From Candidatus Omnitrophota bacterium (GTDB taxonomy: Bacteria > Omnitrophota > Gorgyraeia > Gygaellales > Profunditerraquicolaceae): a stretch of DNA of 64,000 nucleotides. Under the pieces are notes generated by a model, which did not search any database, was not told the DNA's origin, and saw nothing but the letters and a program-made list of their open reading frames with translations. Both the position numbers and the translations under genes were made by a program. The stretch is taken from positions 97,947-161,946 of the forward strand of contig JAZDMX010000003.1 in assembly GCA_043800555.1 (NCBI GenBank), in the 5' to 3' direction. This document shows, in pieces, positions 33,271-54,902 of the stretch. Numbering within the stretch: position 1 is the stretch's first letter; every line of letters begins with the position of its first letter.

Positions 33271-33291
33271 GATTGGCCAGGACGTTAGCCT

Positions 33292-34044: not shown

Positions 34045-34048
34045 AAGG

Positions 34049-36761: not shown

Positions 36762-38153
36762 ATGAGTAAAATTCTTTTTGTATATCCAAATAAAGAAGGT
36801 TATCCTATCATCCCTCTGGGGATAAGCGTCCTGGCAGGCATTCTTAAGAAAGCCGGCCACGAACTGGATATTTTTGATATTACTTTTATGATGCCGGAGA
36901 GGCTGGACCATAATGCCCGGATTAAAACCGGCGTAGTCATAAAAGTGGATATGGAGAAATACTGGGGAGAAGGCGCCGAGAAAGCCGATATTAATGTTGA
37001 GATTACCAGGAAGATCCAAGGCTTTAAACCTGATCTAGTAGCCTTTTCTGTGGTTGAAAACAACTATAGCTGCGCCAGGGGACTGTTTAAGGCGGTCAAG
37101 AAGGCAACAGATGCCCCTATTTTGGCCGGAGGCTTGTTTCCGACAGTCGCGCCGCAGTTTTTTATTGAAGATAAAAATGTAGATTTGCTTTGTATCGGGG
37201 AAGGCGAATACCCCATGTTGGAGCTGGCAACTAGGTTAGACGAAAAAAAAGGTTTTTCGGGCATAAATAACCTTATTATAAAAAATGGCGGCTTGATTGA
37301 GAAGAACCCTTATAACAGGTATTACGACTGGGAGCCAAACGTTTTCCAGGACTGGGGGAAATTCAGCGAAAAACATTTATTAAAACCTTTTGTCGGGAAA
37401 GTTTGGAGGACCGGTTTCTTTGAAACTTCCCGGGGTTGCCCTTTCCAGTGTTTCTATTGCGCCAACCATGTGTATCAGGATATTTTCAAGTCGCTAGGGA
37501 AATACCACAGAGAAAAGCCGCTGGATTATGTTATGGAGGAAATATCCTATAAAAAGAAGAAGTATTCTTTGGAATTATGCTTTTTTAACGATGAAAATTT
37601 CGTAATGATGGGCGAAGACAGATTCAAGAAATTCTGCGCGGAATACAAAAAACACATAGATTTGCCATTTTTTATTCAAACCCGGGCCGATACCCTCTTG
37701 AACGAATCTAAGGTCAGGGCGTTAAAAGAAACGGGTTGCGTTACTATCGGTATAGGCGTTGAATCGGGAAGCGAGAGAATACGCAAGGAAGTGTTAAACA
37801 AGCCTTTATCAAACCAGGCCTACCTGAAAGCATTTGAAAATTGCCATAAATATGATATCCGGACAACAGCCAACGTTATGATGGGAGTGCCTTTTGAGAA
37901 AGAAGAAGATATACTGGAATCTGCCGAGTTCTGCAAGAAAATTAAGGCAAAAAGCGTTTCTCTGGCTATTTTTGCCCCTTATTATGGGTCTGGGTTGCGG
38001 GACATTTCCGTAAAGCACGGTTTTATAGAAGACAAATACCATGACGATATTTCCATGAATTATACTTCGATTATGAAGATGCCGCAATTGTCAAAAGAGA
38101 AAATCGAAGAATTATATTATAAATTTAACAGTTTAGTCTACGGCGGAAGTTAA
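36762..38153 (+). CDS. Cobalamin (B12)-binding domain radical SAM enzyme #1
   Basis: N-terminal B12-binding-like Rossmann (ILFVYPNKEGYPIIPLGISVLAGILKKAGHE). Radical SAM cluster motif TSRGCPFQCFYCANH (CxxxCxxC). Confidence 0.8.
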   Translation: MSKILFVYPNKEGYPIIPLGISVLAGILKKAGHELDIFDITFMMPERLDHNARIKTGVVIKVDMEKYWGEGAEKADINVEITRKIQGFKPDLVAFSVVENNYSCARGLFKAVKKATDAPILAGGLFPTVAPQFFIEDKNVDLLCIGEGEYPMLELATRLDEKKGFSGINNLIIKNGGLIEKNPYNRYYDWEPNVFQDWGKFSEKHLLKPFVGKVWRTGFFETSRGCPFQCFYCANHVYQDIFKSLGKYHREKPLDYVMEEISYKKKKYSLELCFFNDENFVMMGEDRFKKFCAEYKKHIDLPFFIQTRADTLLNESKVRALKETGCVTIGIGVESGSERIRKEVLNKPLSNQAYLKAFENCHKYDIRTTANVMMGVPFEKEEDILESAEFCKKIKAKSVSLAIFAPYYGSGLRDISVKHGFIEDKYHDDISMNYTSIMKMPQLSKEKIEELYYKFNSLVYGGS

Positions 38154-38180: not shown

Positions 38181-39386
38181 ATGCCTCTAGAGCATATATA
38201 TTATATTTGCGGGCATATAACGGACCTGGCGCTAAGCAATGAAATGCGTAAGTTTTTTAAAAGGGTTTTTCCAGGTTTAGAGCAGCATATTGTGCTGGTA
38301 GAACACCCCTATCTTTCTACTGTTGAGTCCAAGATGATATTGGATTGCTTTAGTTCGGTAACCAGGCTGCCTTATTGCGAAACAGTCTTTACAAACAGAT
38401 GGTCCCATGAATTGAGGCCGCAAGCAATATATAAAAGGCTCTCTAATGCGTTTGGCTTCTTGAAGGAATCCGGAGAGCGGCTTAAATTCAAAACCAAAGC
38501 GCTTTGTTTTACTTATGAGATGAGCGAAGACGGGCTTGCGGTCAGGCTGCTTCTTAACAGGATAAGAAAAAATAAGGGTTTGATTTTGTGCCGCTTAGGC
38601 ATGTGGGGCCCGCGCATCAGCGCCTGCAAGACCAATGACTGGCTATTTTGGCTATTGAATAATTTTTATTGTTTGCTTGGGGCTCCGGCAGTCAGCGTAA
38701 ATGTGGGCGGTTGGATGCTGCGGGAAAGAAGGTATTACGCGGAAAAGAAGATACCGCGGTATCACCTGGTCTTTTCGAATAAATGGAAGGATAATGACGG
38801 GTTCAGAGAGGTAAAATATCCGGTTCCCGAAAACAAAGAGAGGACCAGCGTTAGAAAAATGGTATTTTTCTTTGATGACGGGTTATTCTGGGTGGAGCAT
38901 TTCCCGCAAAAGTTCTCTTTGGAATACTGGACCGCTAAAATGAACGAGTTATTAAGGAAAATATCCGAGATTTATAAAGGAGAGGACGTAGATCTTTTGT
39001 TTAAGATGCACCCGGGGGATACAGTAGGAGGGTATTTGCCTCCTTATGATTTGGCTGATTTTAAGATTTATGATGGGAACCTGACTTCCGAGTCTATTTA
39101 TTCCCGCAGGCACAATGAAATCAGGGCCGTTTACGGTATTTGTTCTACTTCCACAAGAACAGCGGATTTATACGGAATCAAAAGCTATGTTTTTTTCGAG
39201 ATGTTTGATATGCCCGAAGATGCCAAAGAAAGGTTCCGGCAGTTCTTGTTGGCCTATAGTAATGTTGTAAGCATAAGAGACCTTGACGGATTATCAGCCC
39301 CCGCTCTTGCCAGTAATACTTGCGTATCGGTTAACGGGGATCAAGAGAGGCTAAAGGGTTTATTTAAGGAGATAATGCAAAACTAG
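38181..39386 (+). CDS. Hypothetical GT-B-like protein with D-D-G and H-P motifs (candidate CMP-ulosonate/nonulosonate transferase)
   Basis: VFFFDDGLFW (D-D-G) followed ~45 aa later by LLFKMHPGD (H-P). This motif pair is characteristic of bacterial sialyl-/Kdo-transferase-like GT-B enzymes. No other recognisable domain. Confidence 0.35.
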   Translation: MPLEHIYYICGHITDLALSNEMRKFFKRVFPGLEQHIVLVEHPYLSTVESKMILDCFSSVTRLPYCETVFTNRWSHELRPQAIYKRLSNAFGFLKESGERLKFKTKALCFTYEMSEDGLAVRLLLNRIRKNKGLILCRLGMWGPRISACKTNDWLFWLLNNFYCLLGAPAVSVNVGGWMLRERRYYAEKKIPRYHLVFSNKWKDNDGFREVKYPVPENKERTSVRKMVFFFDDGLFWVEHFPQKFSLEYWTAKMNELLRKISEIYKGEDVDLLFKMHPGDTVGGYLPPYDLADFKIYDGNLTSESIYSRRHNEIRAVYGICSTSTRTADLYGIKSYVFFEMFDMPEDAKERFRQFLLAYSNVVSIRDLDGLSAPALASNTCVSVNGDQERLKGLFKEIMQN

Positions 39387-39410: not shown

Positions 39411-40385
39411 ATGAATATATTTATTACCGGCATAACCGGATTTGTGGGCAGCCACCTGGCGGATTATCTACTTGATAATTACCCTGAGCATGAAATTTAC
39501 GGTTTAGACCGTTGGCGTTCCCCCAAAGATAATATTAAAGGTATTCTCGGGAAAGTTAATCTTTGTTTTGGGGATTTAACCGACTATTCTTCTTTGAGGC
39601 AGATATTGGCAAAGCATAAGCCTGGAATTATTTTCCATCTGGCGGCGCAGTCTTACGTGGATTTTAGTTTTGTCGCCCCTATTGCCACGCTTAATGCCAA
39701 TGTTATAGGCACCTGCAACCTGTTAGAGGCGGTAAAGGACCTGAAGTTTTCTGAAGGATATGACCCCCTGGTGCATATTTGCAGCTCTTCGGAAGTCTAT
39801 GGGCAGGTTAAGGAAGATGAGGTGCCGATTAAAGAGGCCAATGCTTTTCGTCCGGCCTCCCCCTATGCGGTAAGTAAAGTTGCCGAGGATATGCTTGCTT
39901 TGCAGTATTGGCTTTCCTGGAAGATTAAAACGATCCGCACTCGGATGTTCACGCATACCGGTCCGCGCAGAGGAGAAGTGTTCGCAGCTTCGAGTTTTGC
40001 AAAACAAATTGCCTCTATTGAGGCAGGATTATGCCCTCCGGTGATAAAGGTGGGGAATTTAAACAGCGTAAGGACGTTCTTAGACGTAAGGGACGCGGTA
40101 AAGGCGTATTGGCTTTTGGTTAAAAAAGGCCAGCCGGGAGAGGTTTATAATATCGGCGGGAACGAAACGATGACAATCAAGGAGATGCTTGGTAAGCTTA
40201 TCAAGCTTTCGGTTAAAAAGAATATAAAAGTGGAAGTGGATCCTTTGCGCCTGCGTCCTTCCGATGTTACTCTGCAGGTCCCTTGTATTGATAAATTCTG
40301 CAGCGTTACCGGATGGTCGCCTGAGATTAAATTTGAAAAGACCCTGAAAGACCTCCTGGATTATTGGAGGTCCCAGAAATTATGA
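39411..40385 (+). CDS. NAD-dependent epimerase/dehydratase (GDP-sugar 4,6-dehydratase / Rmd-like)
   Basis: IFITGITGFVGSHLADYLL, SSSEVYG, and PYAVSKVAEDML (YxxxK). 324 aa. Confidence 0.7.
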   Translation: MNIFITGITGFVGSHLADYLLDNYPEHEIYGLDRWRSPKDNIKGILGKVNLCFGDLTDYSSLRQILAKHKPGIIFHLAAQSYVDFSFVAPIATLNANVIGTCNLLEAVKDLKFSEGYDPLVHICSSSEVYGQVKEDEVPIKEANAFRPASPYAVSKVAEDMLALQYWLSWKIKTIRTRMFTHTGPRRGEVFAASSFAKQIASIEAGLCPPVIKVGNLNSVRTFLDVRDAVKAYWLLVKKGQPGEVYNIGGNETMTIKEMLGKLIKLSVKKNIKVEVDPLRLRPSDVTLQVPCIDKFCSVTGWSPEIKFEKTLKDLLDYWRSQKL

Positions 40386-40966
40386 TGAATAGGCAGGCGC
40401 TCCCTAATAATGCGTCGGATAGACCGAAAATATTATGCCCTGATCTGGTCCCGGTGAAAGAACAATACCGCAACAAGTGGTTTAAGGTATTGGAGCGCGG
40501 CGGGATCTTTACATTTGAATATGACCGGCCTCAAGTTGTGGTCTTGCCTATCGTGGACAAGAAGAGTATCGTCATGGTAAGGGTAAGGAGGCCGCTTATG
40601 GATGATTCCCCTTTAGAATTGCCGGCTGGGGATTCGCTGGAGCAGGAGACGCCCGCGGAAGCGGCAAGCCGGGAATTTTCCGAAGAAACAGGGATATGCG
40701 TCAATTCATTGGAAAGATTCAAGCCTGCAACCGCGATCTCTGAAATGCCGGGGAGGATGCCGGTCTTATTGAGCGTTTTTTATATAGAACTGGGTATGGA
40801 TGAATTTCTAAAGAGAAGGGCTTTTGATAAAAAAGAAATCATCTCCGTAGAACTGCTTTCAATAGGCGCAGTTATAAATAAGATCATTACCGGAGAAATA
40901 TATTTGAGCTCTCCTATCGCAATTTTATCGAGATTTATTTTCTCCAACTTGGATGGGATTAAATAA
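40364..40966 (+). CDS. NUDIX hydrolase (nucleotide-sugar pyrophosphatase-like)
   Basis: Nudix box LELPAGDSLEQETPAEAASREFSEETGI (Gx5Ex7REuxEExGu). Confidence 0.7.
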   Translation: MEVPEIMMNRQALPNNASDRPKILCPDLVPVKEQYRNKWFKVLERGGIFTFEYDRPQVVVLPIVDKKSIVMVRVRRPLMDDSPLELPAGDSLEQETPAEAASREFSEETGICVNSLERFKPATAISEMPGRMPVLLSVFYIELGMDEFLKRRAFDKKEIISVELLSIGAVINKIITGEIYLSSPIAILSRFIFSNLDGIK

Positions 40967-42438
40967 TGGAAGGTAAAGATATCATTTTGATTAATGTCGG
41001 CGGGACCAGAAAGAAGGTCTACCAGGATTTAAGCAAGGAATTTTCAGCTATCGATACGCCATTTTGGCTGGCACTTACCGCCGGTTACTTAATAAAGAAG
41101 GGGTTCTCGGTAAGCGTTTTGGACGCCAACGCCGAAAATATCGATTTTGATGAGACGGTCAGAAGGATCGAATCCGTTAACCCCCGCTACATCGCAATCA
41201 TTTGTTATAGCCAGCAGGCTAATGTCAGCACCCCGATAATGGTTGGCGTTGGCCATTTATGCCGGCTGATTAAGGAGAAGATTAAGGGCCGGAATTTGAT
41301 ACTTACCGGCTGGCACCCCTCGGCCCTTGCGCAACGGACGCTACAAGAAGAGGCCTGTGATTTTGTCGCTCAAGGAGAAGGGTTTTACACGCTGGAGGGC
41401 CTTCTCTCCGGAGATCCTTTTGATAATATAGCCGGTTTATGGTGGAAAGATGAGGGAGTGGCTAAGCATAATTTAGCCCCCAGGAATATCCGGAATTTAA
41501 GCGAAGAATTGAATGAGGTTGCCTGGGATTTGCTCCCAATGGATAAATATCGGGCATTCAGCTGGATGTGCTTAAGGGATTTTAGCGAGAGGGAGAAATT
41601 TGCCTCTATTTTCACAAGCCTGGGCTGCCCTTTTAAATGCAGTTTTTGTGCAATACATGCGACATACGGCGAGCATAAAATCAGATACTGGAACCCTGAA
41701 TGGGTCCTGAAGCAGATCGGTATCCTGGTAAAAAACTATGGCGTTAAGCATATTAATATCCATGATGAGCTCTTTGTCTTTAACCCAAAGCACTATCTGC
41801 CGATTGCCCAAGGCATTATTGAGCGGGGGTATTCGCTGAATATAAATGCATTCGCGCGGGTGGATGTATTGGATAAGATGAGCATCGATAATTTACGCGT
41901 TCTGAAAAAAGCGGGGTTCAATTGGTTAAAAATCGGCATTGAGACCGGCAATCGCCGCCTCCGGGCAGGCGTCGGTAAAGATAACTATGGGGAGGAAGTG
42001 GTGAGGCGGGTTATCAAAAAATCGCATGATAACGGCATTGATTTCTGCGCGAATTTTATGTTTGGCCTTCCCGGTGACGACTATGATTCGATGCAGGAGA
42101 CTTTGAATCTGGCGATAGATATGATGCCGGCCTTCCCGAGTTTTTTCGCCACAATGGCGATCCCGGGGTCGGATTTATACAGGGAGGCTTTAGCAAAAAG
42201 AATTCCTTTGCCGGATAACTGGCTAGGTTATGCTTCCCAGGGCTATGAGTTTATGCCTTTACCTACGGAAAAGCTCTCAGCCAGGCAGATACTGGAATTT
42301 AGGGACTACGCCTTCGACGCATATTTCAAGAACCCCAGGTATTTGAATATGATCGGAAATAAATTTGGGCCAAAAGCAAGAGCGCATATTGAGCAGATGA
42401 CGGCAATAAAACTCAAGCGCAAGCTATTGGGAGACTAA
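40966..42438 (+). CDS. Cobalamin (B12)-binding domain radical SAM enzyme #2
   Basis: N-terminal B12-binding-like domain. Radical SAM motif TSLGCPFKCSFCAIH. 490 aa. Confidence 0.8.
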   Translation: MEGKDIILINVGGTRKKVYQDLSKEFSAIDTPFWLALTAGYLIKKGFSVSVLDANAENIDFDETVRRIESVNPRYIAIICYSQQANVSTPIMVGVGHLCRLIKEKIKGRNLILTGWHPSALAQRTLQEEACDFVAQGEGFYTLEGLLSGDPFDNIAGLWWKDEGVAKHNLAPRNIRNLSEELNEVAWDLLPMDKYRAFSWMCLRDFSEREKFASIFTSLGCPFKCSFCAIHATYGEHKIRYWNPEWVLKQIGILVKNYGVKHINIHDELFVFNPKHYLPIAQGIIERGYSLNINAFARVDVLDKMSIDNLRVLKKAGFNWLKIGIETGNRRLRAGVGKDNYGEEVVRRVIKKSHDNGIDFCANFMFGLPGDDYDSMQETLNLAIDMMPAFPSFFATMAIPGSDLYREALAKRIPLPDNWLGYASQGYEFMPLPTEKLSARQILEFRDYAFDAYFKNPRYLNMIGNKFGPKARAHIEQMTAIKLKRKLLGD

Positions 42439-42441
42439 CGA

Positions 42442-43212
42442 ATGGATTCTTTTTGTAGAGATATACGCGAGGATATCCTGCGGATATCGCAGCGCAGCGG
42501 GCATGGGCATATTCCAACTTGTTTCTCGGTAGTGGAAATGATTTATGCGGCTTATTCGGTAATGAGGCATAAGCCAACTGATCCGCAATGGAGCGAGCGC
42601 GATATTTTTATTTTAAGTAAAGGCCACGCAGCCCTGGCTCATTATTGCGTTTTGGCCCGTTTGGGCTATTTCCCGCTGAAGGATGTTTACAGTTTCGGGT
42701 CATTCAGCTCAAAATTTGGCTGCCATGCCGACCGGCTTAGGGTGCCCGGAGTTGAGATGTCCACGGGCTCGCTTGGGCACGGAAGCGGCGTGGCTGCCGG
42801 TATTGCCTTGGCGTTTAAAATGAACAAATCTCCGAGGAGGGTTTTTGTCCTGATCGGAGACGGCGAGTCTAACGAAGGCACGGTATGGGAGTCTTTAATG
42901 GTTGCCGCAAGCCTGAAATTAGACAATCTTTATATTTTATTTGATAACAACGAATCTCAGTCGCGGTGTTTACCGGTTACAAAGCCCCAAGATAAATTTA
43001 GGGCTTTTGATTGCGAAGTTGTCGAATTAAACGGCCATGATGTTTCAGCGCTTAAAGAAGCCATGAGTTTGCCGCCGCAAGGCAGGCCAAAGGTTATTAT
43101 TGCCAATACCGTAAAGGGGCGGGGTTGCAGGACCCTGGTTGAAAACGTCTTTGCCTGGCACCGGCGCAGCCCCTCAAAAGAAGAACTGGATTGTTTACTG
43201 AAAGAAATTTAA
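42442..43212 (+). CDS. Transketolase, N-terminal (TPP/PP-domain) subunit
   Basis: GHGHIPTCFSVVEMIYAAY...ILSKGHAALAHY and the GSLGHG / GDGESNEG TPP-binding motifs of split transketolases. Confidence 0.85.
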   Translation: MDSFCRDIREDILRISQRSGHGHIPTCFSVVEMIYAAYSVMRHKPTDPQWSERDIFILSKGHAALAHYCVLARLGYFPLKDVYSFGSFSSKFGCHADRLRVPGVEMSTGSLGHGSGVAAGIALAFKMNKSPRRVFVLIGDGESNEGTVWESLMVAASLKLDNLYILFDNNESQSRCLPVTKPQDKFRAFDCEVVELNGHDVSALKEAMSLPPQGRPKVIIANTVKGRGCRTLVENVFAWHRRSPSKEELDCLLKEI

Positions 43213-44096
43213 TGAGAAAACATTTTAAAGAAACTCTTATTAAATTGGCTGAAAAGGATAAAAAGCTCCTGTTATTGCTTGGGGATATCAGCGTTTATCT
43301 TTTAAAGGATTTCTCTGCCCGTTTCCCGGGTCAATTTTATAATGCCGGTATCTGTGAGAACACCCTTATTTCGATGGCTGCGGGGTTAAGCTCGCAGGGG
43401 TTTCATCCGTTTGTGCATACCATTGCCCCGTTTATTACCGAAAGAAGTTACGAGCAGGTAAAGCTGGATATGTGTTATAACGGTTTTGGCGGCAATATTG
43501 CTTCTTGCGGAGGGTCATTTGATTATGCCTGGGATGGCGCAACGCACCATTGTTATACCGATCTGGAATTAATGCGCATGCTTCCGGGAATGGAGGTAAT
43601 GCAGCCGGGGAATAAAAAAGAGCTGGGCATCCTTATCGAATCGCAGTATGCCAACGCTAAGCCGTCGTATTTTAGGATACCGGCGGATGAGCATAAGCTT
43701 GATTTGACTGTGGAATTCGGCAAAGGCAATATTGTTATTCACAAGGATTCGGCAGTTTTAACAATCGCAACCGCAGGGCCTATCCTGCAAAATGTCTATG
43801 AAGCCTGTAAGGATTTGAGCGTAAATTTGCTCTATTTTCATACTATTAAGCCGCTGGATATAGAAATCCTGGCGCGCTACTCAAATACAAAAATCTTGGT
43901 CATTCATGATGCCTTCGGACTTTTTGAAGCAATCAGCGCTTCTTCCGAGGCAAAAGTAAAATATTTCGGGATTCCCGATAAATTCTGTTGTTATTATGGG
44001 ACGCTCGAAGACATAAGGAAAGAGCTGGGGCTGGATGTTGAAGGGATCAGGAAGGTTATTTTGCAAGAGCTGGAAGGGGTAAATCGTGGGAAATGA
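43191..44096 (+). CDS. Transketolase, C-terminal (Pyr + C-terminal domain) subunit
   Basis: ~300 aa pyrimidine-binding/C-terminal domain (FYNAGICENTLISMAAGLS...FVHTIAPF). Overlaps the N-subunit gene by 22 nt. Confidence 0.85.
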   Translation: MFTERNLMRKHFKETLIKLAEKDKKLLLLLGDISVYLLKDFSARFPGQFYNAGICENTLISMAAGLSSQGFHPFVHTIAPFITERSYEQVKLDMCYNGFGGNIASCGGSFDYAWDGATHHCYTDLELMRMLPGMEVMQPGNKKELGILIESQYANAKPSYFRIPADEHKLDLTVEFGKGNIVIHKDSAVLTIATAGPILQNVYEACKDLSVNLLYFHTIKPLDIEILARYSNTKILVIHDAFGLFEAISASSEAKVKYFGIPDKFCCYYGTLEDIRKELGLDVEGIRKVILQELEGVNRGK

Positions 44097-45483
44097 GCTT
44101 TTATTGGTTTCCATCGCTTCGAACAGCCATCGCAATATCGGCTGCCTTTCGCTTTATGCGACAGCTGTTGATGCCGGAATATCTACCAACCTCATCTTTA
44201 TTCCCCGGGAGTCCGAATATAGCCAGGATGAATTTTGCGCTTTTTTGCAGAAGAACAACTTTAAGATAGTCGGTATTTCTTTGACGACAAGGGATTTTAA
44301 CTTCGCGCGCAAGATTACAGCGCATATCCGCGGGTCTTTACCGGGCGCCCATATCGTATGGGGGGGGATCCACCCTACCTCTAAGCCCCAAGAGTGCTTG
44401 CATTATGCCGATTCTGTCTGCCTGGGGGAAGCAGAGGTATCCTTAACCCAGCTAATCAAAGCATTAAGGAATAAGTCCGGCATATCGCATATCCCGGGGA
44501 TCGGGATAAAGGCAGGCGGGGCCGATACGATTAACCCGCCGCAGTTAATCAGCGACTTAAACCTGTTGCCGTTTCCCCGCTTTGATTTTAAGAATTTCTA
44601 CGTATTAGACGCCTGCGGGCTGCATTTATTTAGCCGCCAGGATTACGTTAAGTATTCCAGGCATAATGGCGATGGGTATGTTTTATTAAGCTCCAGGTCC
44701 TGCCCGCATCATTGTTCCTACTGCATAAATTCTTTCCTTAATAAACTTTATAACGGCAGTCCTGCAAGATTATACCGCAGGCGTTCCGTAGATAATGTTT
44801 TGGCTGAAATCAAGCACGCTTTAGCGACAATCCCCGGCATAGGTTTTGTTAATTTTATGGATGACCATTTCCTCACGGATAAGAAATGGACCGGAGAATT
44901 CTGCGAGAAATACGCGAGGTTAATTAATCTGCCCTTTATAATCAGGGCGACTCCGGTTGCGATTATAAATACGGAAATCCCGTTGTTAAAAAAGGCCGGG
45001 TTGCGCACAGTGCAAATGGGCATCCAATCGGGGAGCGAAAACACGCACAAGAATATTTTCCATCGGGCTTTTAACAAAGACGATGTTTTGCAGGCCGCCG
45101 GGATCTTAAATAGCAATAACCTTGTCTGCCTCTTTGATTTCATAATCGAGAACGATTTTGAAACGGATGAAGACCGCGATAAGACCATTGAATTGATGCT
45201 GCAGCTTCCTAAGCCGTATATAGCCAATATCTTCGCGATGACTGTTTTCCCGAAAACCGATTTGGAATCCATGTATAAAGAACGCAAGATGACCCCGAGG
45301 ATCGATCCCTACGCAAGCAATTATTTTGATTTCAAGAAGGAGGATTTTTATTATCAGCTGGCGAGCCTGATTCCTTTAATAGATGGAGCAGAAGCCAGAC
45401 GTATATTCCAAAACCGTAATGATAGTATAACCAGGGCATACTTGAAAGAGTTGTATTTAGAAAAAACGCGTTCAGATTCGTAA
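44086..45483 (+). CDS. Cobalamin (B12)-binding domain radical SAM enzyme #3
   Basis: N-terminal B12-binding-like domain (LLVSIASNSHRNIGCLSLYATAV...). Radical SAM motif SSRSCPHHCSYCINS. 465 aa. Confidence 0.8.
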   Translation: MGNELLLVSIASNSHRNIGCLSLYATAVDAGISTNLIFIPRESEYSQDEFCAFLQKNNFKIVGISLTTRDFNFARKITAHIRGSLPGAHIVWGGIHPTSKPQECLHYADSVCLGEAEVSLTQLIKALRNKSGISHIPGIGIKAGGADTINPPQLISDLNLLPFPRFDFKNFYVLDACGLHLFSRQDYVKYSRHNGDGYVLLSSRSCPHHCSYCINSFLNKLYNGSPARLYRRRSVDNVLAEIKHALATIPGIGFVNFMDDHFLTDKKWTGEFCEKYARLINLPFIIRATPVAIINTEIPLLKKAGLRTVQMGIQSGSENTHKNIFHRAFNKDDVLQAAGILNSNNLVCLFDFIIENDFETDEDRDKTIELMLQLPKPYIANIFAMTVFPKTDLESMYKERKMTPRIDPYASNYFDFKKEDFYYQLASLIPLIDGAEARRIFQNRNDSITRAYLKELYLEKTRSDS

Positions 45484-45513: not shown

Positions 45514-46029
45514 ATGAAGGTAGCAGAAACAAATCTTAAGGGCGTGTTGATGATTCATCCGCCCACTGTTTTTGAAGATTTCCGGGGGTCTTACGTTGAG
45601 CTTTACAATAGCGGTCTTTATAGAGAATCCGGAATTAATGTTAATTTCATACAGGATGATATTTCGATTTCCACAAAACACGTCCTTAGGGGTATTCATG
45701 GGGATAATGAAACCTGGAAATTAATTTCTTGTCTTTACGGCGAATTTTATTTTGTTGTAGCCAATTGCGACAAAGAATCATCCGATTTCGGGAAGTGGCA
45801 GTCATTTACCCTCTCGGATAAGAACCATACCCAGATCCTTGTGCCGCCAAAATATGGGAATGCCCATCTTGTGCTAAGCGACAGGGCGGTTTTTCACTAT
45901 AAGCAGACAACTTATTATAATCCGTCTGGACAATTCACTTATAAATGGGATGATCCAGGCTTTAATATCCGCTGGCCGGTTAAGAATCCGATATTGTCTA
46001 AGCGGGATGAACTGGGCCATTTTGTTTAA
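45514..46029 (+). CDS. NDP-sugar 3,5-epimerase, RmlC-like cupin
   Basis: NFIQDDISISTKHVLRGIHGD matches the RmlC motif VQDNHS.S..GVLRGLH. 171 aa. Separated from rmlA/B/D by ~23 kb. Confidence 0.8.
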   Translation: MKVAETNLKGVLMIHPPTVFEDFRGSYVELYNSGLYRESGINVNFIQDDISISTKHVLRGIHGDNETWKLISCLYGEFYFVVANCDKESSDFGKWQSFTLSDKNHTQILVPPKYGNAHLVLSDRAVFHYKQTTYYNPSGQFTYKWDDPGFNIRWPVKNPILSKRDELGHFV

Positions 46030-46032
46030 AAA

Positions 46033-46956
46033 ATGTTGAATGATATAGCAATCAGGATGGCCAATAAAGATGATATCAGCGGAATTGTAGCGCTGCAAAA
46101 ACAAGTATATGGAGAATACAAAAGGGACGCGCCGTTTTTTATCTGGCAATGTTTCAAGAATATTAATCCATCTGTTTTGATAGTAGCCAAGAACAAGAAT
46201 TCTATTGTCGGAACATTGGGTATACAGAAGATCAAGACAACGGATAATTTATGCGGAGGCCAGCTCAGTTGGATCGTTGTTTCCAAACGCCAGCGCAGAA
46301 AAAGGATTTTTACAGAAATGAGCAGGCTTGCTTTAGAATGTATGCCGGGTTTGGATTTTATATTCATTTTTGCAAATAGCCAGGCCGTTGCCCCCTGCGA
46401 GAGTAAATTGGGGATGAGGTTTATCGGAAAGCTGAGCCAGCTGATTTCAAAGCCGCATAGCAAAGCTTATGCGGAATCTTATTTAGAGCCTATCAGCGCC
46501 GGGACAAGATTCCCGGTTGCCTTGCATGATAAAAAAGCAGTAACTTTTCAGCGGCCTGAGCGTTACCGGAGTTGGCGATATGCAAAGAATACGGTGCATA
46601 AATATTTTAAAGTTTTGATTTCGCCAAAAGAGTATGCGATTATTAAATTATTTAAAGAGCGAGGGGAAGTTCAAGTAACAGGAGATATTGTAGATTTTGA
46701 ATGCGATATCCAAAACAAAGGCCAGCTTAAAAAGCTTTTTCTCGCCGCTTCTTTTGAATTAATGAAAATGGGGGCAACAATGATTACTACCTGGGCTGTC
46801 CCCGGGACTAAATTACGCATTCTGTTGGAAGACATGGGTTTTAAAGAAAGCAATCATTGTTCTTTTTTCGGATTAAGAGTCCTTAATCCAGGTTATCACA
46901 GTTTATACAACTTTAAAGCATGGCATTTAGCGCAATCAGATGCCTCTAATTATTGA
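46033..46956 (+). CDS. GNAT-like acyltransferase-fold protein (possibly tandem GNAT domains)
   Basis: N-terminal region with GNAT-like features (ISGIVALQKQVY...IVGTLGIQKI). Weak, and no clear acetyl-CoA P-loop. Confidence 0.35.
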   Translation: MLNDIAIRMANKDDISGIVALQKQVYGEYKRDAPFFIWQCFKNINPSVLIVAKNKNSIVGTLGIQKIKTTDNLCGGQLSWIVVSKRQRRKRIFTEMSRLALECMPGLDFIFIFANSQAVAPCESKLGMRFIGKLSQLISKPHSKAYAESYLEPISAGTRFPVALHDKKAVTFQRPERYRSWRYAKNTVHKYFKVLISPKEYAIIKLFKERGEVQVTGDIVDFECDIQNKGQLKKLFLAASFELMKMGATMITTWAVPGTKLRILLEDMGFKESNHCSFFGLRVLNPGYHSLYNFKAWHLAQSDASNY

Positions 46957-46989
46957 TTTAAGTGTTTGTTTTTAATTATGGAGGAATAA

Positions 46990-48024
46990 GTGAAAGACAT
47001 AAAACAATCTATGGAGAAAGCCCTTATTGAGCAGGGATGGATATTCGGCGATAAAGCTACGCGAATCGGCTCACCGTTTGTTTGGGCAGAAAATGAGCAT
47101 AAAAATAATATCCTTAATCTGGAAGGGTTGTATGCGATAGGCTTTTATTTCTCAATGTGGTATGTCGTAAAAAGAACTCCGCGAGAACTGATGATCCATA
47201 ACCATGAAAAAGTCAGCAATTATATGATTTCTGAGATTACGCGTTCTTTCAGGCATTTTTTCCCTTTCCTGAAATTAACGAAAGATTGGAATAGCCATAT
47301 AGAGGCGCAGGCCTTAGCCAGAAGCCAGGATTATTTCTTTCTGAAGAAATTCTGTGAAATCCTGCCAAGTAAGCCGCATCATATTGATATCGGCCCGGGG
47401 CTGGGATGCGCTGCTATCGCTAGTATAAAATTTCTTAACTCTTTCTTTTACGCGCTTGAAGCAAGCCCGATGAGCTATGCGGTCCAGAGGCACTATTTCA
47501 GGTTTCTTTCTCCTGTCCCCGGAGCTTATCTTGACGTTATAGAATGTGAGAATTATCAGCTTCCTGCCGGGGAAATAATGCAAGAGATAAATAAGAACGG
47601 TTACAGAATCAAACACATCCCTTCATGGAGATTCCCCTGGTTGCTTGATGGGTCAATGGATATCTTGTCTGCTACCTTTGTTTTAAATGAACTTAATTAT
47701 TCAGGTATTTTCTGGATTCTATCGAATGCCTCGAGAGTTATCAAAAAAGGAGGATACTTTTATATTCGTGATAGTGAGATTTTAAAGCCAGGAACTCATA
47801 CAGTTGAATACGATAAGGTGCTTCTAAAGATTGGTTTTGAAAAAGTAAGCGAGCTAAGGTTTGAAAACAGGCATATATATTTTGGTATCCCCAGGCTATA
47901 TCGGAAAATTAATTCAAAAGCAGTTTCTTTTGAAGAGATTGTTGGCATGTGCCTGGGGAAATACGCTTCAGTGGCTGCGGGAAGTGATTTGGCATATAAT
48001 CTCGACAAGATGCCGAAATTGTAG
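46990..48024 (+). CDS. Putative class I SAM-dependent methyltransferase
   Basis: DIGPGLGCAAIAS is a motif I-like glycine-rich loop; otherwise unrecognised. Confidence 0.4.
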   Translation: MKDIKQSMEKALIEQGWIFGDKATRIGSPFVWAENEHKNNILNLEGLYAIGFYFSMWYVVKRTPRELMIHNHEKVSNYMISEITRSFRHFFPFLKLTKDWNSHIEAQALARSQDYFFLKKFCEILPSKPHHIDIGPGLGCAAIASIKFLNSFFYALEASPMSYAVQRHYFRFLSPVPGAYLDVIECENYQLPAGEIMQEINKNGYRIKHIPSWRFPWLLDGSMDILSATFVLNELNYSGIFWILSNASRVIKKGGYFYIRDSEILKPGTHTVEYDKVLLKIGFEKVSELRFENRHIYFGIPRLYRKINSKAVSFEEIVGMCLGKYASVAAGSDLAYNLDKMPKL

Positions 48025-48078
48025 TTTTAATTAAAGCGTAGTTGTCTTAGGCGTTATAAGACTTAAGGAGATTATCAT

Positions 48079-49077
48079 ATGGTTATCGTCAGAACCCCCT
48101 TTCGTATTTCATTCTTTGGCGGGGGGACAGATTACCCTTCCTGGTATAAGGAAAATGGCGGGATGGTTTTAAGCACCACTATAAATAAATATTGTTATAT
48201 CAGCTGCAGGTATCTTCCGCCTTTTTTTAACTATAAATATCGCATAAGATATGTCAAGCGGGAAGAAACGCAGGATATCTCCCAGATTGAACATCCTTCG
48301 GTTAGGGAATGCCTGAAGTTTATGAATATCGGTTCCGGAATTGAAATGGTCCATACCAGCGACATTCCGGCAAGATCAGGGGTCGGTTCAAGTTCGGCAT
48401 TTACAGTAGGATTTTTACAGGCCTTAAATGCCTTAAAAGGGAAAATGATTACCAAAAGGCAATTGGCGCGTGATGCGATCCATGTGGAGCATAACTTGAT
48501 TAAGGAAAATATAGGCGCCCAGGATCAGGTTGCGGTTGCTTTTGGCGGCCTTAACAAGATTGATTTTAGCGGGGATAATGAATTCTACGTTAATCCGCTT
48601 ACAATATCTAAAGAAAGAGCAGATCTATTACAGGGCCATTTAATGTTATTTTTTACCGGGTTTTATCGTAATGCTTCAGATATCGCAGAAGAGCAAATTA
48701 AAAATACTCCGGCATTAAAAAAAGAGCTCCATGAAATGAAGGGGATGGTGAGTGAGGCGGTTGAGATACTTAATGGCGACTCCGGAGATATTGAAGAATT
48801 CGGAAAGCTATTGCATGAATCATGGAAGATCAAACGCAGCCTGACATCTATGATTTCTACCCCTGAAATAGACGCTATTTATGGGGCTGCTTGTAAATCT
48901 GGGGCCCTTGGAGGCAAGTTACTGGGTGCCGGAGGCGGGGGTTTTATTCTTTTATTCGCCAAGCCAGAAGCGCAATCGAAGATAAAAGAAAAGCTGAAAA
49001 ATATCCTTCATGTGCCTTTTTCTTTTGAGAAGCTCGGAAGCCAGGTTATTATGTATTCTACCCAAGATTTTTATTAA
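48079..49077 (+). CDS. GHMP kinase, D-glycero-D-manno-heptose 7-phosphate kinase (HddA)-like
   Basis: TPFRISFFGGGTDYPSWY N-terminus (HddA-like). GHMP motif PARSGVGSSSAF. C-terminal LLGAGGGGF. Confidence 0.75.
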   Translation: MVIVRTPFRISFFGGGTDYPSWYKENGGMVLSTTINKYCYISCRYLPPFFNYKYRIRYVKREETQDISQIEHPSVRECLKFMNIGSGIEMVHTSDIPARSGVGSSSAFTVGFLQALNALKGKMITKRQLARDAIHVEHNLIKENIGAQDQVAVAFGGLNKIDFSGDNEFYVNPLTISKERADLLQGHLMLFFTGFYRNASDIAEEQIKNTPALKKELHEMKGMVSEAVEILNGDSGDIEEFGKLLHESWKIKRSLTSMISTPEIDAIYGAACKSGALGGKLLGAGGGGFILLFAKPEAQSKIKEKLKNILHVPFSFEKLGSQVIMYSTQDFY

Positions 49078-49092
49078 AACATACCTGCCATT

Positions 49093-49797
49093 ATGATAGA
49101 TACCGATGTTTTTATTCTTTGCGGAGGGAGGGGAAAAAGGTTAAGAGGTATTTCCGGGCCTAAACCAAAATCGATGATGCTGATTAATAAAAGACCGCTT
49201 CTTGATTTATTGATTGATTGTTTTGCGAAGTTTGGGTTCAAGCGTATTATTTTAGGGCTGGGTTATAAAGCAAATTATATAAAGGATTACTACCGGGATA
49301 ATTTACCCAAAGGTATAGAAATTTGTTTTTCCACAGAGGCTAAGCCCCTGGGGACCGGGGGGGCGTTAAAAAAAGCAGGAAAACTTATAAAAAGCGGTAA
49401 TTTCTTTGTTTTAAACGGAGATTCTTTGTCTAAATTTAACCCCTTAAAGATGTTGAGATACCACGATAAGAAGAATGCGCAAGTTACTGTTTTATTAAAG
49501 AAAATGGATAAGGCAAGCCAATACGGCCGGGTGGAGCTGGATAGAAATCGGCGGATTGTAAGTTATGATGAAAAGATAAAAAGAAGCGGTAGATGCTTCA
49601 TAAATGCGGGAGTATATATATTTAATAAGAAAATATTGGATTTAATGCCGGCTAAGAAGGGGTTTTCCTTGGAGTATGATTTTTTCCCTTCAATATTAGG
49701 CGAGGGAGTATTTGGCTTCAAGTATTCGGGTTCGTTTATTGATATCGGCACTCCCGATAGGTATAGAAAGGCGCAAAGGTCATGGCGGGTCAGCTAG
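49093..49797 (+). CDS. Sugar-1-phosphate nucleotidyltransferase (HddC/GMP-like)
   Basis: VFILCGGRGKRLRGISGPKPKSM is the G-x-G-x-R-L pyrophosphorylase motif. 234 aa. Directly follows the GHMP kinase. Confidence 0.75.
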   Translation: MIDTDVFILCGGRGKRLRGISGPKPKSMMLINKRPLLDLLIDCFAKFGFKRIILGLGYKANYIKDYYRDNLPKGIEICFSTEAKPLGTGGALKKAGKLIKSGNFFVLNGDSLSKFNPLKMLRYHDKKNAQVTVLLKKMDKASQYGRVELDRNRRIVSYDEKIKRSGRCFINAGVYIFNKKILDLMPAKKGFSLEYDFFPSILGEGVFGFKYSGSFIDIGTPDRYRKAQRSWRVS

Positions 49798-50903
49798 TAA
49801 GCATAATAATACCCACAATGAACCGTTCTGACTTTCTGATCAGGGCATTGAATTATTATAGGTCAGTTGGTTTTAAGGGCTATATCTGTATAGGCGATTC
49901 CAGTTATGGCGAGCATTCCCGGATTATAACCGATTTTATTAAAGAGATAGGGAGCGATTTAAATATAATTTATAAATATTACAGTAACCCGCCTTATTAT
50001 AATGACGCTATTTGCGTTAAAGATCTCCTGGAACTTGTAGTCACCCCGTATGCCGTGGAGAGCGGGGATGATGATTTTCTTGTCCCCTCGGCTTTAGAAA
50101 AGTGCGCAAGTTTTCTGCAGGAAAACCCTGATTACGGCTCGGCCCATGGTTTAAGGGTGGCGCTCAGGTTGGAAGGGGATAGCGTTTATGGCAAGGCAGT
50201 CCAGGCCCATAACTGCCATCAGCTTGCTTTAAGTTCGCCCCGGGCATGCGATCGATGGTCTGCCTATATGAGGCATCCGGTTTCTAATTTATATTCAGTC
50301 CATAGGATTGGGGCCTTGCGTAATATTTATAAGCATCCGGCTTCGTTGAATATGCGTTATATCGGAACCGAGATAACTACGGTAGGATTGTCCGTTATTT
50401 GCGGGAAGGTAAAAGAAATCGATTGCCTCTCTACCGTGTTTCAGGTTAACCGGAATAATTCTCTGGCGAATTATAGTTTTTATTCTTATCTTATGGATCC
50501 GGGTTGGTCTGAGGGGGCAGGAAACCTCAAGAGGATAATTACTGCCGCTTTGAAAGATGCCGATGGAATCAGCCAGCAAAAGGCGCAAGAGATATTCGAC
50601 CGTGAATTCTGGAGGTTTATCTTAAACAGCTTGCATTGGGATTACAAAACTAGGTATAAAGACCTGCCTTACGAGAACCCTTTTATCAAGGCAGCTAAAA
50701 AATGCTTGAGCAAGATCCCGGGTTTTATTCGTATGGCAAACTACCTGATCGGGAAGGTTTTAAGCCATAAAAATAAAAATAATCTGGGCTCGGTCAAGAG
50801 CCTTTCTTTGGGCGAGTTGTTAAATGCAAGGTCGGAAATATCCAGGGATTTTCTTAAGGTTTATAGTATTATCCAGGGTAAATTCCGTCCGGGGGTAAAA
50901 TAA
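49782..50903 (+). CDS. Glycosyltransferase family 2-like protein
   Basis: VSIIIPTMNRSDFL is the GT2 N-terminal motif. A D-x-D-like GDDDF is present. 373 aa. Confidence 0.5.
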   Translation: MAGQLVSIIIPTMNRSDFLIRALNYYRSVGFKGYICIGDSSYGEHSRIITDFIKEIGSDLNIIYKYYSNPPYYNDAICVKDLLELVVTPYAVESGDDDFLVPSALEKCASFLQENPDYGSAHGLRVALRLEGDSVYGKAVQAHNCHQLALSSPRACDRWSAYMRHPVSNLYSVHRIGALRNIYKHPASLNMRYIGTEITTVGLSVICGKVKEIDCLSTVFQVNRNNSLANYSFYSYLMDPGWSEGAGNLKRIITAALKDADGISQQKAQEIFDREFWRFILNSLHWDYKTRYKDLPYENPFIKAAKKCLSKIPGFIRMANYLIGKVLSHKNKNNLGSVKSLSLGELLNARSEISRDFLKVYSIIQGKFRPGVK

Positions 50904-52080: not shown

Positions 52081-53337
52081 ATGGCCATTCAAGGCAGGGA
52101 GAAAGCAGGTTTATTGAATATGAAAAAATGTTTAATTTGCGGGGCATCCATTGAGGAATTTATGTCATTCGGCAAAATGCCGATCGCTAACGGATTCCTC
52201 TCCCCGGGACAATTTAAAGACGAGTATTTCTTTGAGCTTAAAACCGCATTTTGCCAAAATTGCGGGATGTTCCAGCTCTTAGAGCAACCGTTAAAGGAGA
52301 TGATGTTTAATGAAAATTACGCGTTCTTTTCCGGGACCTCTAAGAGGATGGCCTTACATTTTAAAGAGTTTGCGGATGAGGTATTAGATAAATATATTAA
52401 GGCAAAGGATCCTTTTGTGGTGGAAATCGGCAGCAATGACGGCATCCTGCTGCAGAATTTCTCCGCCAAGAATATCCGTCATTTGGGCATTGAGCCTTCA
52501 GCAAACGTTGCTCAAGCTGCTTCGGCCAAAGGGATAAATACTGTTTCGGAGTTTTTTGATGAAAAATTGGCGCGTAAAGTTTGCCAGGAGCATGGGCAGG
52601 CAGATGTCATCCTGGCGGCAAATTGCATGTGTCATATCCCTTATCTGCATTCAGTTGTTGAAGGGATGAAGCTTTTGCTTAAGCCGGGAGGCCGCGTCAT
52701 CTTCGAAGACCCTTACCTGGCAGATGTCCTGGAAAAGACTTCTTATGACCAGATATACGACGAGCACGTTTTTCTTTTTTCACTGGCTTCTGTTAAATAT
52801 CTTTTTAATGAACATTCGATGGAGCTGGCGGATGTTAAGCCGCAGGAAACGCACGGAGGTTCAATGCGTTATTATATAGCGCATAAAGGTACGCATAGCC
52901 CGGGTAAAAGCGTACAGGAGCAGTTAAAGAAAGAAGGGGATCTGGGGCTTTCTGAGCCGGAAACTTTTGAGGCCTTCCGCCGGAATTGCGAGAGGTCAAA
53001 AAAAGAGTTAATCTCTGTATTAAACGATATTAAAAGAGAGGGCAAGAGGGTAGTGGGTTATGCCGCTACTTCTAAAAGTACAACTGTCATTAACTATTGC
53101 GGCATAGGCCCGGATTTGATTGAGTTTATCTGCGATACTACTCCGATTAAACAGGGTAAATTCAGCCCCGGCAAGCATATCCCTATAAAACCCTATGAAG
53201 AATTTGTAAAATCTTACCCGGAGTACGCTTTATTATTCGGATGGAATCACGCTAAAGAGATAATGGCTAAGGAAGAGGATTTTGCCAGCCAGGGCGGAAA
53301 ATGGATAGTTTATGTGCCAAAAGTGGGGATAAACTAA
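52081..53337 (+). CDS. SAM-dependent NDP-hexose C-methyltransferase (TylCIII/EvaC-like) with an N-terminal zinc ribbon
   Basis: N-terminal CxxC...CxxC (CLICG...CQNCG) zinc ribbon, a class I methyltransferase core (VVEIGSNDG), and the C-methyltransferase C-terminal domain architecture. Confidence 0.7.
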   Translation: MAIQGREKAGLLNMKKCLICGASIEEFMSFGKMPIANGFLSPGQFKDEYFFELKTAFCQNCGMFQLLEQPLKEMMFNENYAFFSGTSKRMALHFKEFADEVLDKYIKAKDPFVVEIGSNDGILLQNFSAKNIRHLGIEPSANVAQAASAKGINTVSEFFDEKLARKVCQEHGQADVILAANCMCHIPYLHSVVEGMKLLLKPGGRVIFEDPYLADVLEKTSYDQIYDEHVFLFSLASVKYLFNEHSMELADVKPQETHGGSMRYYIAHKGTHSPGKSVQEQLKKEGDLGLSEPETFEAFRRNCERSKKELISVLNDIKREGKRVVGYAATSKSTTVINYCGIGPDLIEFICDTTPIKQGKFSPGKHIPIKPYEEFVKSYPEYALLFGWNHAKEIMAKEEDFASQGGKWIVYVPKVGIN

Positions 53338-53338
53338 T

Positions 53339-54451
53339 ATGATTATTTGTGCTGATCCTTTGGCCGGTTATCTTGCGCATAGGAAGCAGATTGATTCTGC
53401 CGTTGGTTCTGTTTTGGCCAGCGGCAGGTATATATTAGGTGAACAGGTCAAGGCGTTTGAGACGGAGTTTGCCGGATACATTGGCGTTAAATATGCGGTC
53501 TCCGTTGGCAACGGCACGGATGCTTTAAGGATCGCGCTTTGCTCCTGCGGGATCAAGCGGGGTGATGAGGTGATAACTGTTTCGCATACCGCTGTTGCTA
53601 CCGTAGCTGCTATTGAGTTGGCAGGGGGAGTGCCTGTATTGGTTGATATCGACCCCTTTACTATGACCCTGGATCCTTCCAAGCTGGAAAAGATGGTTAC
53701 GAAACGCACCAAAGCCGTAATTGTCGTTCATCTTTATGGCTGTTGCGCTGATTTGTCTCCTATAATCAAGATAGCAAAGCGCTATGGACTTAGGGTTATT
53801 GAAGACTGCGCGCAGGCGCACGGCGCTTTTTATAAAGGAAGAAGGGCGGGTTCTTGGGGCGATTTATCCTGTTTTAGTTTTTATCCTACCAAAAACCTGG
53901 GGGCAATTGGCGATGGCGGAATGATCCTGACTGACAGGCTTGAGCTGGCTGAGAAAGCCGCGCTCTTGAGGGAATACGGCTGGGAAAAAAGATACGAGAG
54001 CTTGGTCCCCGGGGGTAATTCAAGGCTGGATGAATTGCAGGCTGCGATCTTAAGGGTAAAGCTCAAATACCTGGATTCAGAGAATAAGAAACGCTTAGCT
54101 TTATCCGGACTCTACAATAAGAAGCTTAAAAAAGAAGGGTGGTTGGTTTTGCCGGAATACCGGGTAGACCTAAGCCATGTTTACCATCTTTTTGTGGTCC
54201 GTTGCCGCCTTAGAGATAGGCTCCAGGGATACTTAAAGAAGAATAATATCTTCTCCCTGGTCCATTATCCTGTTCCCGTACACCTGCAAAAAGCGTATTT
54301 TGGCAGGCTCAGGGGCAAAGATGACCTTAAAGAGACGGAGAATGCCGCAAAGAGCGTTTTGTCATTGCCTATTTATCCGCAGATGTCCAAATACGATTTG
54401 GAGGAGGTAGCTGCGGCTGTACACAGCTTCAAGGGAGGGCGTTATGATTAA
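53339..54451 (+). CDS. DegT/DnrJ/EryC1/StrS-family NDP-sugar aminotransferase
   Basis: Canonical family layout: DEVITVSHT, VIEDCAQAHGA, and SFYPTKNLGAIGDGG with the PLP-Lys. Confidence 0.85.
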   Translation: MIICADPLAGYLAHRKQIDSAVGSVLASGRYILGEQVKAFETEFAGYIGVKYAVSVGNGTDALRIALCSCGIKRGDEVITVSHTAVATVAAIELAGGVPVLVDIDPFTMTLDPSKLEKMVTKRTKAVIVVHLYGCCADLSPIIKIAKRYGLRVIEDCAQAHGAFYKGRRAGSWGDLSCFSFYPTKNLGAIGDGGMILTDRLELAEKAALLREYGWEKRYESLVPGGNSRLDELQAAILRVKLKYLDSENKKRLALSGLYNKKLKKEGWLVLPEYRVDLSHVYHLFVVRCRLRDRLQGYLKKNNIFSLVHYPVPVHLQKAYFGRLRGKDDLKETENAAKSVLSLPIYPQMSKYDLEEVAAAVHSFKGGRYD

Positions 54452-54902
54452 AGGCGTAATATTGAAGAAACTGGTTACCCATTGCGATGAGCGCGGTTTT
54501 TTCAGGGAGCTGATCAGGAAGAATGACGGGTTCTTTAAAGAAGGTTTCGGGCAATGGTCGCATTCTTTGATGTATCCGGGCGTGATAAAGGCATGGCATA
54601 TTCATAAGAGGCAAACCGATTGGCTCTACGTTGCCTCCGGGGTGATAAAAGCCGTTCTTTATGACAACCGTAGCTCCTCTGCGACTTTCAAGAGGATAAC
54701 GGAGGTTTTTATGGGGGATGGCCAACCTGCCGGGGTATTAAGAGTGCCTATAGGCGTGGCGCACGGTTGTAAATGTATCTGCGGGCCGGCGAATTTATTT
54801 TATATTACTTCTAAGGTTTATGACCCTAGAGATGAAGGCAGGATCGCTTTTGATGATGCAAGGATTGGATACGATTGGTTGTCCGGCCCGGAGATTAAAT
54901 AG
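54444..54902 (+). CDS. WxcM/FdtA-like cupin (NDP-4-keto-6-deoxyhexose 3,4-ketoisomerase-like)
   Basis: 152 aa. WHIHKRQTDWLYVASGVIKAVLYD resembles the FdtA/QdtA HAHK..dq....G.....l.D core. An 8-nt overlap with the aminotransferase. Confidence 0.55.
   Translation: MIKGVILKKLVTHCDERGFFRELIRKNDGFFKEGFGQWSHSLMYPGVIKAWHIHKRQTDWLYVASGVIKAVLYDNRSSSATFKRITEVFMGDGQPAGVLRVPIGVAHGCKCICGPANLFYITSKVYDPRDEGRIAFDDARIGYDWLSGPEIK

Follow-up and report, generated by a model that had tools for sequence, protein, structure and literature searches.

The window examined here is a stretch of 64,000 nucleotides from a Candidatus Omnitrophota bacterium (contig JAZDMX010000003.1, positions 97,947 to 161,946), and all coordinates are those of this stretch. 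A GHMP kinase gene and the nucleotidyltransferase gene directly after it most likely encode the two sugar-activating enzymes of a GDP-sugar cassette that is conserved and horizontally mobile, and carry out the steps known from HddA and HddC. Judging from homology, it is reasonably probable that the two enzymes make GDP-heptose. A branch leading to GDP-heptose or GDP-6-deoxyheptose is the best reading of the cassette, since a neighbouring short-chain dehydrogenase/reductase (SDR) is 47% identical to a heptose dehydratase and an RmlC-like epimerase gene travels with the cassette; the later steps of the branch are proposed with less confidence. All accessory enzymes belong to the GDP-sugar class and comprise a DmhA-like SDR, GDP-heptose-type epimerases and, in related loci, reductases that resemble GDP-fucose synthase (Fcl-like).

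The kinase (48079..49077, + strand, 332 aa) contains PFRISFFGGGTDYP and PARSGVGSSSAF, and its sequence is identical to NCBI MFH0855101.1. Both domains of the GHMP fold are present, with Pfam matches to GHMP_kinases_N (PF00288, 55 bits) and GHMP_kinases_C (PF08544, 48 bits). In a PDB search the closest solved structures are B. thetaiotaomicron 3k85, B. pseudomallei WcbL and C. jejuni HddA (Cj1425), with E values of 1e-33 to 1e-37. Fkp follows at 1e-19, with the match confined to the C-terminal 240 residues, and galactokinase and the mevalonate kinases are lower still. In a neighbour-joining tree the kinase family forms a single clade, the HddA trio is its sister group and Fkp is the outgroup. 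By sequence, the kinase is thus placed outside the HddA orthologue group, in a separate, large and uncharacterised sister clade. A homologue search of 1.84 billion cluster representatives returned 2,883 with E values below 1e-30; the best 150 of these (50%-identity clusters) are 37-66% identical to the kinase, mostly 40-55%, at 265-394 bits, and the solved HddA-type kinases reach just 118-132 bits against it in the separate PDB search. An earlier sequence-only reading of the window had likened the kinase and nucleotidyltransferase to the HddA/HddC pair and had called for a phylogenetic placement of the kinase. The likeness holds in that these are the nearest characterised relatives, and the placement next to HddA, with Fkp outside, agrees with it; the kinase does not, however, fall inside the HddA clade.

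Residues R13, D22 and Q162-D163 of WcbL align to R9, D18 and Q148-D149 of the kinase, the last pair lying in a QDQ motif, and all are invariant across the clade. These residues are also present in Fkp and so do not discriminate between substrates. The WcbL paper gives general catalytic residues and states that a substrate complex was never obtained; for this reason the residues that bind the heptose 7-phosphate cannot serve as a discriminating test. Relatives at least 70% identical to the kinase occur in Omnitrophota, Nitrospirota and one Firmicute, and a scan of genome contigs found 12 close relatives. From such high identity across phyla within the kinase clade, the cassette would seem to be mobile and strongly constrained.

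The nucleotidyltransferase (49093..49797, + strand) is HddC-like and probably a guanylyltransferase. It matches the NTP_transferase family (E 5e-32), and its best PDB match is the Yersinia HddC (6jq8/5xhw, E 2e-38), while on the NCBIfam HddC model (NF049965) it scores 149.8 bits, where the cutoff is 300. The gap between kinase and nucleotidyltransferase is 15 nt, and the latter overlaps the next glycosyltransferase gene. From this tight packing, the kinase, the nucleotidyltransferase and their neighbours look like a single operon. The fraction of guanine plus cytosine is about 0.40 at 46001-50000 and about 0.45 on either side; the dip spans the kinase, the nucleotidyltransferase and the two genes upstream, which encode a GNAT-like protein and a 344-aa protein, and would fit a recent gain of this stretch of the cassette.

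The kinase clade was surveyed in 97 non-redundant loci, whose kinases are 51-84% identical to that of the window, and the loci were annotated by means of proteins taken as seeds from the window and locus L001. Twenty-nine of the loci are well covered, having 5 kb or more to either side of the kinase. Among these, a two-subunit thiamine diphosphate (ThDP) enzyme, either transketolase-like or E1 alpha/beta-like, accompanies the kinase in 24, and a nucleotidyltransferase, usually directly downstream of the kinase, in 20. An RmlC-like epimerase (59-75% identical to the window copy) and a B12 radical S-adenosylmethionine (SAM) enzyme are each found in 15 loci, a DmhA-like SDR in 13, gmhA and/or gmhB in 10, and a NUDIX gene in eight. 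L041 and L044 repeat the order of the window, with the DmhA-like SDR, NUDIX, radical SAM, the two transketolase-like subunits (TktN and TktC), radical SAM, RmlC-like and kinase genes in succession, and in L041 the nucleotidyltransferase directly follows the kinase. In L005, L009, L012, L048 and others, a recurrent block lies upstream of the kinase and encodes an E1 alpha/beta or transketolase-like enzyme, a 310-aa protein with a faint methyltransferase match, a FabG-type SDR, and an RmlC-like protein between two Fcl-like ones. Neither the 310-aa protein nor the FabG orthologue of this block is encoded in the window, and its two Fcl-like SDRs are missing there as well. Twenty control loci with distant GHMP kinases contain no gmhA, gmhB or E1 genes and have only two weak TktN matches.

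The sequence-only reading recognised neither GmhA nor GmhB in the window. This was confirmed, since no SIS/GmhA and no GmhB-type haloacid dehalogenase (HAD) was found by Pfam and NCBIfam scans of the open reading frames (ORFs) at 4804-63509 or by tblastn of the whole window with a GmhA and a GmhB of one related locus. Where gmhA and gmhB are called in related loci, the best NCBIfam models are D-sedoheptulose-7-phosphate isomerase and heptose-1,7-bisphosphate 7-phosphatase, with scores at or just under the cutoffs. The kinases linked to these genes are spread over the whole clade, being 71% identical to the window kinase in L001 and 65% in L047, and in L047 gmhA begins 35 nt past the kinase. 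Two genes of the window were considered as substitutes and rejected. The HAD at 31884, the only one in the window, is a phosphatase of the KdsC/KDN-9-P type whose neighbours are NeuB and a CMP-transferase. For the TIM-barrel gene at 34049, considered as an isomerase, nothing points to such a role, and it is part of the same NeuB module.

Several observations weigh against a GDP-heptose product. The kinase scores 148.8 bits on the NCBIfam HddA equivalog, where the cutoff is 600, and is 28-31% identical to 3k85, WcbL and the C. jejuni HddA, which come from three phyla and share 49-53% with one another. The nucleotidyltransferase matches the mannose-1-phosphate guanylyltransferase model equally well, at 156.6 bits (cutoff 440) versus 149.8 for HddC. 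Neither gmhA nor gmhB is present in the window or in about two thirds of the related loci. Both of the Fcl-like reductases that flank the epimerase gene in most relatives are missing from the window. Finally, the carriers of the cassette include bacteria of the candidate phyla radiation (CPR), namely Woesebacteria and Saccharibacteria, in which heptose synthesis for lipopolysaccharide (LPS) is unexpected.

The position of the kinase clade outside the HddA orthologue group, the lack of gmhA and gmhB in most loci, the CPR hosts and the fit of the nucleotidyltransferase to the mannose-1-phosphate model also favour a pair that activates some other sugar. The kinase would then act at the anomeric position of a hexose, free or derivatised, of a deoxyhexose or of a recycled sugar, in the manner of Fkp-type salvage, and the nucleotidyltransferase would form a GDP-hexose. 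The NUDIX enzyme might in that case free the sugar from another nucleotide, and its gene, in the eight loci that carry it, coincides with gmhA or gmhB only once. We consider such a role unlikely, given that adjacency to gmhA/gmhB is recurrent, often immediate and found clade-wide, that the dehydratase is far nearer to the heptose enzyme than to GDP-mannose 4,6-dehydratase (GMD), and that the window already holds a true GMD.

The DmhA-like SDR (39411..40385, + strand) is a probable GDP-heptose 4,6-dehydratase. Its best PDB match is 7us5, the C. jejuni GDP-D-glycero-D-manno-heptose 4,6-dehydratase (295 bits, 47% identity), as compared with 213 bits for Rmd and about 130 bits for the GMDs. The motifs ICSSSEVYG and ASPYAVSK supply the SSE and YxxxK residues; SSE is also found in Rmd, so dehydratase and reductase are not told apart by these motifs. 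The proposal that this Gmd-like SDR acts as a heptose 4,6-dehydratase/reductase is therefore upheld as far as its nearest relative is concerned, with the two activities not separated. In L001 the orthologue of the SDR gene is directly followed by gmhA-gmhB, which take the place of NUDIX.

In the window, the SDR gene is paired with a NUDIX hydrolase gene (40364..40966, + strand; PF00293), whose product has weak similarity to ADP-ribose/ADP-sugar pyrophosphatases. The pair recurs in L005 (2172-3777), L041 (6828-8532), L044, L048 and L056, and NUDIX and gmhA/gmhB occur together in one of the 29 well-covered loci. The NUDIX enzyme may belong to an alternative precursor route or may regulate the GDP-sugar pool, like Gmm.

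The RmlC-fold epimerase (45514..46029, + strand; PF00908 dTDP_sugar_isom, E 2e-45) is probably a 3- or 3,5-epimerase of GDP-4-keto-heptose. Its gene is indeed remote from rmlA (19779) and an rmlB-like gene (21530), which lie about 23 kb upstream, as had been pointed out. The top eight PDB matches are all C. jejuni GDP-heptose 3- and 3,5-epimerases of the Cj1430, MlghB and DdahB type (E 2e-35 to 3e-34). On the rmlC equivalog TIGR01221 the protein scores 142.8 bits, under the cutoff of 155.75. Orthologues 59-75% identical to it are found in 22 related loci, always within the GDP-sugar cassette of the kinase, and in most relatives the gene is flanked by two Fcl-like reductase genes. No rmlABD genes were noted in those related loci for which genes were called; the remaining loci were not screened for rml.

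A displaced RmlC of the dTDP-rhamnose pathway, unrelated to the kinase and nucleotidyltransferase, would also have the RmlC fold and a strong PF00908 match, and there is no other full-length RmlC near rmlABD. The margin in the PDB search is small as well, with the dTDP RmlCs at E 4e-32 versus 2e-35 for the GDP-heptose epimerases. This origin is nevertheless very improbable in view of the score below the equivalog cutoff and of the orthologues that sit in the kinase cassette beside GDP-type reductases. Because of its GDP-heptose epimerase matches, the failed rmlC cutoff and the Fcl-like neighbours in relatives, the RmlC-like gene is assigned to the GDP-sugar cassette rather than to the distant rml set; the suggestion that it serves a GDP-heptose branch is supported.

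Between the NUDIX and RmlC-like genes lies a transketolase-like ThDP enzyme that is split into two subunits. The PP-domain subunit (42442..43212, + strand) matches Transketolase_N (PF00456, 115 bits) and belongs to a family that is at least 60% identical across phyla and syntenic with the kinase cassette. The Pyr-domain subunit (43191..44096, + strand) matches Transket_pyr (PF02779) and scores 98 bits against the solved split transketolase 6yaj and 77 bits against DXS. Twenty-five C subunits of cassette transketolase-like enzymes were aligned with the split transketolase at about 30% identity. In this alignment they retain the cofactor-activating Glu and the equivalents of H473 and R358. The equivalent of H461 is Gly in all 25, that of S385 is mostly Ala or Val, and that of R520 is usually not Arg; in the window subunit the equivalents of S385, H461 and R520 are V, G and A. 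In E. coli transketolase, R358, S385, H461 and R520 are the residues that we take to bind the substrate phosphate; the paper on the split transketolase names donor-site residues only. The enzyme is divergent, and at this level of identity appears to be without the canonical phosphate-binding residues. In sister loci E1 alpha/beta pairs fill the same slot and are followed by a FabG-type reductase, and in L001 the two-subunit ThDP enzyme is directly upstream of the kinase.

The sequence-only reading had the local transketolase feeding the heptose branch. If so, the enzyme would make the precursor, sedoheptulose-7-phosphate (S7P) or a longer ketose phosphate such as octulose-8-phosphate, and the kinase and nucleotidyltransferase would activate the aldose derived from it. 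Such a route would presumably resemble the LmbR/N/P/K/O octose route. The tight linkage of the ThDP pair to the kinase clade (24 of the 29 loci, and immediately upstream of the kinase in L001) is in its favour, and this part of the proposal stands. We find such a supply of the precursor quite unlikely all the same. The C subunit is as near to DXS as to a real transketolase, and the equivalents of the phosphate-site residues are lost, H461 in every sequence and S385 and R520 in most. The E1 alpha/beta enzymes in the same slot imply pyruvate-type donors, whose 1-deoxy products could not be isomerised to an aldose, and most such loci have no isomerase.

A 2025 review describes E1-like alpha-KADH2 enzymes that add C2 branches to deoxy-keto-sugars (aldgamycin; kibdelomycin, KbDH-alpha/beta). 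For miharamycin and amipurimycin, the same review gives the proposal that split-gene transketolases attach a hydroxyacetyl unit to a keto-sugar, a step not yet shown in vitro. By analogy, the transketolase-like pair more likely adds a C2 unit to the GDP-4-keto sugar formed by the DmhA-like enzyme, and so would decorate the sugar rather than supply its precursor. This role is favoured over S7P supply because of the divergence of the enzyme, the loss of the phosphate-site equivalents and the alternation or co-occurrence with E1 alpha/beta pairs. The transketolase-like genes are flanked by genes for two B12-binding radical SAM enzymes (40966..42438 and 44086..45483, both + strand, both with PF02310 and PF04055), whose positions are kept in L041 and L044. 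The B12-binding radical SAM enzymes may act on the sugar by C-methylation or by carbon extension. A third enzyme of this type is encoded at 36762-38153, which makes three in one glycan cluster.

The homologies, the clade structure and the conserved neighbourhoods described above are established, and from them we infer each substrate of the following pathway and the order of its steps. D,D-heptose-7-phosphate (D-glycero-D-manno configuration), made by a GmhA encoded elsewhere, would be phosphorylated at O1 by the kinase. The 7-phosphate would be removed by a GmhB, also encoded elsewhere, and the nucleotidyltransferase would form GDP-heptose. The DmhA-like SDR would dehydrate this to GDP-6-deoxy-4-keto-heptose, and the RmlC-fold enzyme may then epimerise it at C3 and/or C5. 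The transketolase-like ThDP enzyme and the B12-binding radical SAM enzymes would add carbon to the keto-sugar, probably as a C2 branch and C-methyl groups, and the products of the genes at 46033 and 46990 perhaps elaborate the sugar further. The sugar would finally be reduced and transferred by downstream glycosyltransferases, and the glycan would be exported by Wzm/Wzt.

The cassette resembles the HddA/HddC heptose systems in its gene pair, where a short NTP_transferase protein comes after a GHMP kinase that bears the RxxxxGGGTD and QDQ catalytic motifs. It also resembles them in the associated DmhA-type 4,6-dehydratase, RmlC-fold GDP-heptose epimerases and Fcl-like reductases, and in gmhA/gmhB, which are adjacent in part of the clade. 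It differs from them in that its kinase is in a sister clade and that gmhA/gmhB are missing from the window and from most loci, and it includes ThDP, B12-radical-SAM and often NUDIX genes. We know of no characterised heptose cluster with ThDP, B12-radical-SAM or NUDIX genes. Fkp, the bifunctional L-fucokinase/GDP-fucose pyrophosphorylase, is of the same broad GHMP subfamily, with GG(W/G)TD and QDQ motifs, and follows the same logic of a kinase plus a GDP-sugar pyrophosphorylase. The activities reside here on separate proteins, however, and the similarity to Fkp is at the level of E 1e-19, with Fkp as the outgroup in the tree.

The ThDP enzymes that put C2 branches on keto-sugars are likewise two-subunit enzymes within deoxy-keto-sugar pathways, and include both E1 and transketolase types beside a dehydratase, an epimerase and reductases. 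Those are from actinomycete antibiotic pathways, whereas the present ones lie in surface-glycan clusters of uncultured phyla, and the likeness is one of subunit make-up and gene setting.

The heptose assignment itself is an annotation-level one that pipelines have already made, with JGI labelling clade members HddA and NCBI labelling them "kinase". New here are the distinctness of the uncharacterised kinase clade, the usual lack of in-cluster gmhA/gmhB, and the tight coupling to ThDP and radical SAM enzymes. The clade that carries these labels is a distinct family, as the best 150 representatives are far closer to the window kinase than are the characterised HddAs. If the kinase is an HddA isozyme, sugars derived from GDP-heptose would be far commoner in uncultured phyla than the few examples from pathogens imply. 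The strong association with ThDP and B12-radical-SAM enzymes suggests heptoses with branches or extensions that are as yet undescribed in cell-surface glycans, and the cassette offers candidate enzymes for the still unproven branching of keto-sugars by split transketolases.

More tentatively, the kinase clade, the nucleotidyltransferase, and the ThDP and B12-radical-SAM enzymes could define a widespread pathway to carbon-branched or chain-extended GDP-heptoses or higher sugars, found in Omnitrophota, Planctomycetota, Nitrospirota, CPR bacteria and others. The split transketolase-like enzymes would then act as keto-sugar C-glycolyl transferases in cell-envelope biosynthesis, and the kinase may take a substrate other than D,D-heptose-7-phosphate where gmhA/gmhB are missing. 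Such a pathway is a speculative extension of the heptose reading, and we regard it as possible rather than probable.

Two further genes had been brought in to support a heptose branch, and neither does so. The GT9 gene at 60845 was thought to fit as a heptosyltransferase. Its product scores under every heptosyltransferase cutoff, and the gene adjoins one for a WaaL-like ligase; at most, it hints at ADP-heptose, and hence at a gmhA, in this organism. The rpe gene (13874) lies 28 kb off among the housekeeping genes obg-proBA-nadD-pgm and adds nothing to the case.

All the ORFs named in the sequence-only reading are present on the + strand where it placed them. The cassette is part of a glycan-biosynthesis array of more than 40 genes, which forms a single + strand run from about 19.8 kb to the end of the window. 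The array opens with the rml set (19.8-22.5 kb), comprising rmlA (19779), rmlD-like and rmlB-like (21530) genes. Also in the array are the true GMD, accompanied by Fcl-like reductase and DegT aminotransferase genes, the Wzm/Wzt ABC exporter, the NeuB / KdsC-like / CMP-transferase module, several SDRs and glycosyltransferases, and the GT9 and WaaL-like ligase genes.

Three genes close to the cassette enzymes have less distinct products. The 401-aa ORF at 38181-39386, with a radical SAM gene on one side and that of the DmhA-like SDR on the other, has no Pfam or NCBIfam match. The GNAT-like protein (46033..46956, + strand) is of unknown function, with a weak, sub-cutoff Acetyltransf_9 match, and is shared only with the syntenic locus L044. 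The 344-aa protein (46990..48024, + strand) is possibly a SAM-dependent methyltransferase; it has no Pfam match, a faint match to the CpaM methyltransferase and a DIGPGLG motif, and it has a counterpart in L044.

Other parts of the array appear to serve different sugars. At 31884-35907, the KdsC/KDN-9-P-phosphatase-like HAD is encoded together with a CMP-transferase, a NeuB that has no SAF domain, a GFO/IDH/MocA oxidoreductase and a xylose-isomerase-like TIM barrel, and this module would seem to be a branch of its own, for an ulosonic acid (KDN/Kdo-like). At 25656-26390, a gene for a cysteine protease of the papain family (Peptidase_C1) lies among genes for sugar-nucleotide SDRs, which is odd for a glycan cluster. 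The set at 52081-54902, which groups a DegT aminotransferase with a TylC3-type sugar C-methyltransferase and a short WxcM/RmlC-like cupin, is probably a dTDP branch that is fed by rmlA/rmlB and yields a C-methylated amino sugar.

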